A stretch of DNA of 10,763 nucleotides from a virus (Duplodnaviria > Heunggongvirae > Uroviricota > Caudoviricetes). The stretch's first letter is position 1; each line of letters starts with the position of its first letter. This document shows positions 4,409-5,061 of this stretch, one piece after another. The stretch is from the IMG/VR virus record IMGVR_UViG_2526164690_000049. The stretch is one strand, 5' to 3'. The notes beneath the pieces were generated by a model. It made no database searches, was not told where the DNA came from, and saw nothing but the letters and a program-made list of their open reading frames with translations. The position numbers and the translations under genes are program-made.

Positions 4409-4819
4409 TCAGAACGGAATATCATCACCGTAGGGGTCATCGTCTCCCGCTGGTGGCTGATTACCCTGTGTGCCTGTGGTTTTGCGTCTGTTCCCGCCAG
4501 GACGTGCCGCACGGGCACTGATTACGCTGTCTGCAATAACCTGATAACCCTGCCGCGTTTCCCCGTTCTGTCCGGTCCACTGGCTGACCTGCATCGTGCC
4601 GGATACGCTGGCAACGTCGCCTTTTTGATGTTTAGCCAGGAAGTCGGCCTGCTTACCAAATGCGATGACCGATAGCCATAACGTCGCCTGCCCATCCTGC
4701 GCCTGACTACATGGCAACGATACCGCCATACGCGCCAGCGTCATCGGTGTGCCCTTACTGGTCTGTTTTACCTGCGGGTCGTCCACCAGCCGCCCGTAAG
4801 CTGCTATCTGTGCTGTCAT
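4409..4819 (-). CDS. ssb: Single-stranded DNA-binding protein (short SSB with conserved acidic C-terminal tip)
   Basis: 136 aa. The N-terminal region aligns by eye to the E. coli SSB OB fold (AQIAAYGRLVDDPQV..., WLSVIAFGKQADFLAKHQKGD...). The C-terminus ...PAGDDDPYGDDIPF carries the DDIPF tail characteristic of bacterial SSB, with a much shortened Gly/Gln linker. ATGA overlap with the upstream ORF. Confidence 0.85.
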   Translation of the reverse strand: MTAQIAAYGRLVDDPQVKQTSKGTPMTLARMAVSLPCSQAQDGQATLWLSVIAFGKQADFLAKHQKGDVASVSGTMQVSQWTGQNGETRQGYQVIADSVISARAARPGGNRRKTTGTQGNQPPAGDDDPYGDDIPF

Positions 4820-5061
4820 GCTGTCTGCTCTCCGGTTTTAACGTTGATGGTTGTCACCTGTTCCGCTTCGGCAATCTCCCGTTCTGTCAGCGTGGCAAAG
4901 TTTGCAGCTGCCGTTGTCATGAATGAGCTAATCAGTTCGGGATGTGCTTTCGCATATCCTTCCCCGGCGTTGCGGTCGATGATTTTTATCGACACCCTTA
5001 ACCAGTGTTCCGTCAAATCAAGGGCGTGCGATTGTGATTTTTTTGTGTGCTTCGCTGTCAT
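4816..5061 (-). CDS. Hypothetical protein, 81 aa, first gene of the SSB operon
   Basis: ORF whose TGA (4818-4816) overlaps the SSB ATG (4819-4817), so it is translationally coupled. Its own SD is weak. It starts about 45 bp from the iteron array. No family recognised. Confidence 0.5.
   Translation of the reverse strand: MTAKHTKKSQSHALDLTEHWLRVSIKIIDRNAGEGYAKAHPELISSFMTTAAANFATLTEREIAEAEQVTTINVKTGEQTA

Follow-up and report, generated by a model that had tools for sequence, protein, structure and literature searches.

The gene examined here, which encodes a protein that binds single-stranded DNA (an SSB), lies within a 10,763-nucleotide stretch of DNA (IMG/VR record IMGVR_UViG_2526164690_000049), referred to throughout as the window. 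All major open reading frames of the window bar one are on the minus strand. Read along that strand, the order is integrase, AlpA, small ORFs that include DUF4222, primase-helicase, a 287-bp AT-rich gap, ORF81, SSB and PerC. The features used in the analysis are the following (coordinates are those of the window).

9546-10763, minus strand: integrase (window ORF)
8984-9172, minus strand: AlpA (window ORF)
5349-7166, minus strand: D5/P4-type primase-helicase (pri-rep), from Pfam D5_N, DUF5906 and Pox_D5 and from phrog_864 (4e-193)
5062-5348, no strand: AT-rich intergenic replication origin, from iterons, repeat families and GC content
4816-5061, minus strand: ORF81, 81 aa, a phrog_1231 protein forming a helical hairpin (profile match, AlphaFold2)
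4828-4833, minus strand: Shine-Dalgarno sequence GGAGAG serving the SSB ATG, 8 nt ahead of it and within the ORF81 3' end (read from the sequence)
4409-4819, minus strand: SSB gene, 136 aa (PF00436, TIGR00621, phrog_44, AlphaFold2, Foldseek)
Parts of the SSB (AlphaFold2 and sequence): OB fold, residues 1-104; disordered linker, residues ~105-127; acidic tip DPYGDDIPF, residues 128-136
4126-4398, minus strand: PerC-family regulator, 90 aa (PF06069; RefSeq WP_000233310.1)
4102-4119, minus strand: intrinsic-terminator-like hairpin and T run, directly after perC (consensus scan)

The island and a probable transcription unit

Beyond PerC the window holds a 74-aa ORF, followed by genes for an HK97-type major capsid protein, a prohead protease, a portal and head closure. 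The portal gene of this copy is frameshifted. The window aligns end to end, at 99.9% identity, with chromosomes from pathogenic E. coli, O111 and O157:H7 among them, and a 1.7-kb stretch around the SSB gene is 100% identical in O157:H7, O26 and O111 genomes. In O157:H7 strain PV15-279 the identical element (locus L001) is ~15 kb long, sits inside tqsA bounded by tqsA fragments, and continues with connector, HNH, TerS and TerL genes; its annotation contains no tail or lysis genes. The layout of an EcCIEDL933-type island is present, namely int, alpA, pri/rep and an iteron origin on one strand, a length of ~15 kb and an att site of its own. Counting the identical element, so is the capsid and packaging set of the capsid-forming PICIs (major capsid protein, protease, portal, connectors, HNH, TerS and TerL). 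The PV15-279 element agrees with what has been published on EcCIEDL933. The window belongs to the EcCIEDL933-type capsid-forming PICIs (cf-PICIs). EcCIEDL933, the prototype cf-PICI of 15.4 kb, carries int, alpA and rep together with all capsid and packaging genes and no tails, and its induction by the helpers HK106 and HK446 is AlpA-dependent (bioRxiv 10.1101/2022.09.08.507074). An Rfam scan of the window returned no family at gathering score.

The gap between the primase-helicase gene and ORF81 has a GC content of 32-35% and contains ten exact copies of GGTGAAYAG in 5113-5335, in both orientations, where 0.12 would be expected by chance. The iterons form two groups flanking an AT-rich centre, a layout shared with Gram-negative PICI origins (PMC6092414). 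The placement of the SSB gene near an origin in the initial annotation of this DNA, which had been made from the sequence alone, is thereby borne out. The gene directly upstream of the origin carries the RefSeq name 'DNA primase family protein', and PICI induction is known to require both AlpA and pri (PMC6092414).

The same annotation had described the two small neighbours of the SSB gene as unknown proteins coupled to it, a description that fits one of them in part and the other not at all. ORF81 belongs to a family without an assigned function, phrog_1231, though it is not an orphan (at least 741 representative clusters). The 90-aa protein is PerC: it matches PF06069 (E 8e-44, 148.2 bits against a cut-off of 22.6) over profile positions 1-89 of 90, a full-length likeness to the PerC/Pch regulators, and RefSeq names it 'PerC family transcriptional regulator'. 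Its start codon lies 10 nt after the SSB stop, and because this gap holds GGGGGTGA, a Shine-Dalgarno-like sequence, perC is not overlap-coupled to the SSB gene. PerC would be separate regulator cargo. The PerC-like genes of EcCIEDL933 and EcCICFT073 reportedly have no effect on LEE1 promoter fusions (Porter 2005, cited in PMC11773190).

The hairpin and T run at 4102-4119 are likely to mark the end of an ORF81-SSB-PerC transcription unit. No minus-strand promoter-like site was found between the 3' end of the primase gene and perC, and minus-strand terminator-like sites downstream of the primase 3' end occur only at or after the end of perC, with none earlier. Given these absences, ORF81, SSB and PerC are most simply read as the predicted tail of an AlpA-dependent early/replication transcript.

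A short-linker SSB with a host-type tip

The product of 4409-4819 is a bacterial-type SSB with a confident OB fold. It matches the Pfam SSB family PF00436 (E 4e-17, 62.5 bits, cut-off 26), TIGR00621 (58.4 bits, cut-off 53.95) and phrog_44 (E 1e-40), and its RefSeq entry, WP_000126691.1, is named 'single-stranded DNA-binding protein'. The AlphaFold2 model, a monomer built from 18 family members, has strands at residues 2-11, 16-19, 25-36, 44-54, 69-82 and 88-102 and a helix at 55-62; block-mean pLDDT is 81-92 over the OB residues 1-104 and below 50 over residues 105-136. Foldseek aligns this model with solved bacterial SSBs at a probability of 1.00 (E ~4e-9, TM 0.65-0.78 on the target), confirming the short OB-fold SSB first proposed for this gene. 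The nearest PDB sequences are the Thermus/Deinococcus and Thermotoga SSBs (6e-12 to 4e-11), with E. coli SSB at 2e-6. Two narrower assignments were rejected: the chromosomal ssb subfamily (NF006533, 27.4 bits against a cut-off of 260) and the F-type plasmid, or leading-region, SSBs (NF010292, 26.8 bits against 265).

The chromosomal SSB of E. coli (PF00436; PDB 1eyg, 1eqq, 4mz9) shares with the satellite protein the OB fold, a disordered tail, the terminal DDIPF and the ssDNA-stacking aromatics W54, F60 and W88, whose equivalents W48, F54 and W81 are invariant in the satellite family. The two proteins are, however, only 29% identical and differ in length (136 aa in the satellite, 178 aa in E. 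coli). In their alignment the L23 loop of the satellite SSB is shorter by 3 residues, the equivalent of W40, a fourth stacking aromatic, is lost and the equivalent of H55 is Leu. In E. coli, H55 is the residue mutated in the ssb-1 allele. As a mobile-element PF00436 SSB with a host-compatible acidic tip, the satellite protein also resembles phage and plasmid SSBs (phrog_44; NF010292), but phages offer nothing closely related: among 50,697 phage records the highest identity is 35%, and no enterobacterial phage is among the matches listed.

Between the OB domain and the tip lie ~23 disordered residues (105-127), which are not Gly/Gln/Pro-rich, whereas the E. coli SSB linker is given as 56 residues in PMC7145534. 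The linker is therefore short and not near-absent, as the description 'almost no linker' had implied. Lengths in the family are 136, 140, 141 or 149 aa, with indels confined to the linker.

The C-terminus, DPYGDDIPF, is in frame. Its last five residues, DDIPF, are those of the host tip (MDFDDDIPF), and both tips have an aromatic residue at -7. A D-x-IPF ending is shared by 97 of the 102 full-length copies sampled: DDIPF in 43, DNIPF in 43, DGIPF in 8 and DEIPF in 3. Pooled pairwise dN/dS, a rough estimate that is not phylogeny-corrected, comes to 0.16 in the OB domain, to 0.27 in the linker and to 0.07 in the tip. The tip is thus the most constrained part of the SSB and under strong purifying selection, an argument for the importance of partner docking. 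The intact tip noted at the outset is a property of the family and no frame artefact.

ORF81, gene order and distribution

The TGA stop of ORF81 overlaps the ATG of the SSB gene by 4 nt (ATGA), and this overlap is kept in 87 of 94 related loci, so the upstream coupling that had been suggested holds well beyond this island. ORF81 itself matches phrog_1231 (E 8e-49, 80 of 83 positions) and has no match in Pfam, NCBIfam or PADLOC. A tblastn search of the 50,697 phage records returned nothing for it at 1e-5, and one distant member of its family matched only Pseudomonas phage KT1 in those records. The 741 relatives were retrieved at E <= 0.001 by a profile search of 1.84 billion representatives; most are 70-110 aa long, they have the common motif AIxxIDxxFGxGYAKxHPELxAAFMxTAAxDF, and all 63 of the distant relatives sampled match phrog_1231. 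An AlphaFold2 model from an alignment of diverse relatives (mean pLDDT 87) places helices at residues 3-32 and 41-75, a helical hairpin that returned no informative structural match. Purifying selection acts on ORF81: its dN/dS is 0.26 overall and drops to 0.17 when the C-terminal three quarters of the alignment are taken alone.

Distant members of the family occupy a recurrent type of position. In Pseudomonas phage KT1 the relative lies directly after a PrimPol-DUF5906-D5 protein; another precedes a 957-aa protein with a weak prim-pol signal, one is between an SNF2 helicase and a DUF927 protein, one is located after AlpA, and in cf-PICI-like contigs that lack an SSB the relative stands between DUF927 and the capsid gene. 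phrog_1231 is a large uncharacterised family of phage and satellite early/replication modules, and from these positions ORF81 tracks SF3 primase-helicase replicons rather than SSB as such. The most economical guess is that ORF81 probably serves as a further small accessory of replication. Neither the broader link between phrog_1231 and SF3 primase-helicases nor the conserved ATGA coupling of the SSB gene with ORF81 was found in the searchable literature.

These observations invite an explanation in which ORF81 bridges the SF3 primase-helicase and the SSB, in the manner of accessory factors of the T4 gp59 or lambda P class, so that the SSB acts mainly via ORF81 and not via host partners. The coupling, the purifying selection and the way distant relatives from metagenomic contigs and a Pseudomonas phage sit beside replicases of the PrimPol/DUF5906/D5 or DUF927 type would all be expected if this were so. 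Each gene is, however, found without the other, which weakens the proposal: ORF81 relatives occur without any SSB at five loci (L022, L137, L148, L172, L209), and in DUF927-type PICIs the SSB gene stands without ORF81, an unrelated ORF of 180-257 aa overlapping its start by 4 nt instead. The helical hairpin offers no structural clue in its favour. We consider both the bridging role and its likeness to gp59 or P unlikely. Treating the 257-aa and 180-aa ORFs as long forms of ORF81 was also tried and rejected; they are unrelated (E 3.5 and 0.5).

Clustering at 90% identity divides the SSB family into 596 groups, almost all of them from Escherichia and Shigella. Of 5426 complete E. coli genomes, 1771 contain DNA resembling the SSB gene, and a single genome can have as many as 6 copies; all but two of the 2308 places (2306) are chromosomal, in satellites. 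Relatives sharing 60-72% identity are found in E. albertii, Edwardsiella and Klebsiella, and also on a few Klebsiella, Serratia and Sodalis plasmids. A scan of genome contigs for the SSB gene, run with strict patterns, gave 5 loci.

Two arrangements recur. D5-primase cf-PICIs have the order primase, ori, ORF81/85, SSB, PerC, capsid genes, and DUF927 classical PICIs the order replicase, 180-257-aa ORF, SSB (149 aa), ProQ/FinO-like protein, PerC and, further on, a Q-like antiterminator. EcCICFT073, the prototype classical PICI, reads primase, ori, ORF85, SSB, PerC, lambda-E-like capsid gene. Compared with the window, its SSB is identical at 134 of 136 residues (99%) and its ORF85 at 86%, but its primase at only 48%, which indicates that the SSB gene has been exchanged between islands independently of the primase allele. 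Exchange of this kind is easier to reconcile with a generic role towards the host than with one tied to a particular primase. Neither the EcCICFT073 SSB (WP_000126698.1) nor that of EcCIEDL933 (WP_000126691.1) differs materially from the window SSB.

To assess the stability of this neighbourhood, 107 enterobacterial loci with ORF81 were drawn from IMG/VR by a degenerate DNA motif scan; the sample was not deduplicated. The SSB gene is directly downstream of ORF81 in 94 of 104 loci, and a replicase lies upstream in all 83 with enough upstream sequence (78 D5-type, 5 DUF927). The gene after the SSB varies and may encode a 404-aa capsid-like protein, PerC, ProQ/FinO or others. The ORF81-SSB-PerC trio is therefore not a fixed unit; only the ORF81-SSB pair is stable.

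A second IMG/VR sample was seeded with the primase (66 loci, primases 88-100% identical, not deduplicated). ORF81 and SSB are both present in 56 of these loci, ORF81 only in 2 and neither in 8, and one locus has ORF81 directly followed by PerC. Six of the 56 SSB copies (~11%) are truncated. Rep and ori of EcCICFT073 alone maintain a plasmid in DH5alpha (Fillol-Salom et al., PMC6092414). Taken with the absence of the SSB gene from 10 of 66 islands with near-identical primases, this makes the SSB appear a frequent but dispensable accessory of the replicon.

A proposed role in satellite replication

We propose, with moderate confidence, that the protein is an accessory replication SSB of the Gram-negative PICI replication module. 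A role in island replication, one of the possibilities raised initially, is the best-supported reading: (i) the gene accompanies an int-alpA-primase-ori module; (ii) its position directly after the replicase and iteron origin, in cf-PICIs and classical PICIs and with D5 or DUF927 replicases, supports a replication role; (iii) selection is strongest on the tip. The gene itself is already known. It bears an SSB name in RefSeq, belongs to two experimentally studied islands, and has been grouped with Primase/DUF5906 in the Replication category of GN-PICIs, beside mapped origins (2023; PMC10111431). Being common (about one third of complete E. coli genomes) and carried by the two best-studied E. 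coli PICIs, it has little discovery value in itself.

Under this proposal, helper induction would trigger AlpA-dependent transcription that crosses the primase-helicase gene and then the origin, enters ORF81-SSB-PerC and stops at the terminator after perC. Translation across the ATGA overlap would yield ORF81 in a fixed ratio with the SSB. The SSB, which is probably tetrameric as other PF00436 proteins are, would coat the single-stranded DNA produced as the primase-helicase opens the iteron origin. Its tip, with the E. coli-like pattern aromatic-x-D-D-I-P-F, may then draw SSB-interacting host proteins, for example PriA or the Pol III chi subunit, onto the satellite DNA, and the short linker (~23 aa, not Gly/Gln-rich) would be predicted to give lower cooperativity between tetramers than in host SSB. 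The satellite would in this way have an SSB supply of its own while SOS damage and helper replication occupy the host SSB. Tetramer formation, partner recruitment and the benefit to replication are all suggested by the established properties of PF00436 SSBs. The missing W40 equivalent and the Leu in place of H55 weigh against the proposal, as does the gene's apparent dispensability.

A conditional advantage could also take the form of protection and not replication. The SSB might shield satellite single-stranded DNA from nucleases of the host or, as a decoy, titrate SSB-interacting host nucleases and helicases (RecJ, ExoI, RecQ) through its host-like tip; in a variant of the same idea it would substitute for host SSB perturbed by a defence system or by the helper. 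A tip that is both the most constrained part of the protein and identical to the host's in its last five residues would suit either version, as would a gene that the basic replicon can do without, the pattern expected of a conditional benefit, and a lineage lacking close relatives in phage records. Against this, PADLOC models gave no match for SSB, ORF81 or PerC, the loci examined contain no linked defence or anti-defence gene, and the fixed place that the gene holds behind replicase and origin is what one would look for in a gene of replication. We judge the decoy or shield improbable, and the substitute for a perturbed host SSB equally so.

Lambdoid helpers rely on host SSB, and the combination of a divergent OB core (29% identity) with a tip resembling the host's could let the satellite protein compete on helper forks or for SSB partners and so damp helper replication. 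This competition with host or helper partners, put forward in the initial annotation, finds no support and we reject it as highly improbable: cf-PICI reproduction is reported to be cost-free for the helper (bioRxiv 10.1101/2022.09.08.507074), and when post-ori genes of EcCICFT073, the island with the near-identical SSB, were expressed singly, only c1503/rppA is reported to have reduced lambda plaquing.

The accessory replication SSB remains the reading we favour. No experiment on satellite SSB function was found in the searchable literature, and what a satellite gains from having its own SSB retains modest value as a question. The protein also offers a naturally short linker together with a host-type tip, and could be compared with the engineered linker-deletion variants of E. 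coli SSB. Modest value attaches likewise to the ORF81 family, which is large, uncharacterised and recurs beside SF3 primase-helicases. A bolder and, in our estimate, doubtful idea is that ORF81 is an unrecognised factor of SF3 (D5/DUF927/PrimPol) replication that links SSB or single-stranded DNA to the primase-helicase, with the ORF81-SSB pair serving as a portable booster. If it were true, enterobacterial PICIs would make ORF81 at a constant ratio to a short-linker SSB specific to satellites, and the pair would allow a satellite to copy its DNA at the same time as its helper while host SSB is in short supply.

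Exchange of the ORF81-SSB cassette

The SSB of EcCICFT073, the prototype classical PICI of E. coli CFT073, is 99% identical to that of the cf-PICI in the window, and its ORF81 homologue is 86% identical to the window ORF81 (comparison locus L142, NC_004431.1 1384284-1385207, against window 4126-5061). The primases of the two islands, by contrast, are only 48% identical, which shows that satellite lineages have recently exchanged the ORF81-SSB cassette. In two cf-PICI-like IMG/VR contigs (L022 and L137), the gene order is a DUF927 replicase of about 900 aa, an ORF81-family gene and an HK97-type capsid gene, and the SSB gene is absent. 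Relatives of ORF81 are therefore retained even where a capsid-forming satellite has no SSB.

Many classical PICIs (comparison locus L025, 3351-4565, and 34 similar IMG/VR loci) encode a protein of 404 aa just after the SSB: its gene is the longest of the ORFs of at least 50 aa that start near the end of the SSB gene on the same strand. Judged by eye alone, this protein resembles capsid proteins of the lambda gpE type.

Features of this cf-PICI copy

Two near-identical hairpins bracket a small ORF in the window:
4102-4119 and 3748-3765, minus strand: two putative terminator hairpins of almost the same sequence, AGCCGGAGAAATCCGGCT and AGCCGGAGCAATCCGGCT, a T run after each
3776-4000: 74-aa ORF (phrog_1957) between the two hairpins
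With its hairpins, the ORF resembles a small cassette that has been inserted after perC and ahead of the capsid operon.

The portal gene (532-1713, minus strand) lacks one nucleotide of a homopolymer run at about 747-751, where sequence comparison gives T5 in the window vs T6 in PV15-279, an E. coli O157:H7 strain with the full element. RefSeq annotates an intact portal of 403 aa, and compared with it about the last 80 codons of this copy are shifted in frame. The deletion is either a sequencing error or the mark of a packaging-defective cf-PICI copy.

A 308-aa ORF (8005-8931, minus strand) overlaps the only plus-strand gene of the window, a YlcI/YnfO-family gene (8183-8488). As part of the minus-strand region at 8005-8931 is annotated in RefSeq as an incomplete pseudogene, the regulatory region that lies between alpA and the Icd-like gene seems to have decayed in part.

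The primase N-terminus

Over its first ~146 residues, the D5-type primase shares 66-67% identity with the N-termini of DUF927-type replicases of classical PICIs (first ~146 codons of window 5349-7181 against comparison loci L002-L005, 5666-6100), and outside this segment the proteins differ. Such identity between otherwise different replicases suggests that these residues constitute a swappable module common to both replicase types.
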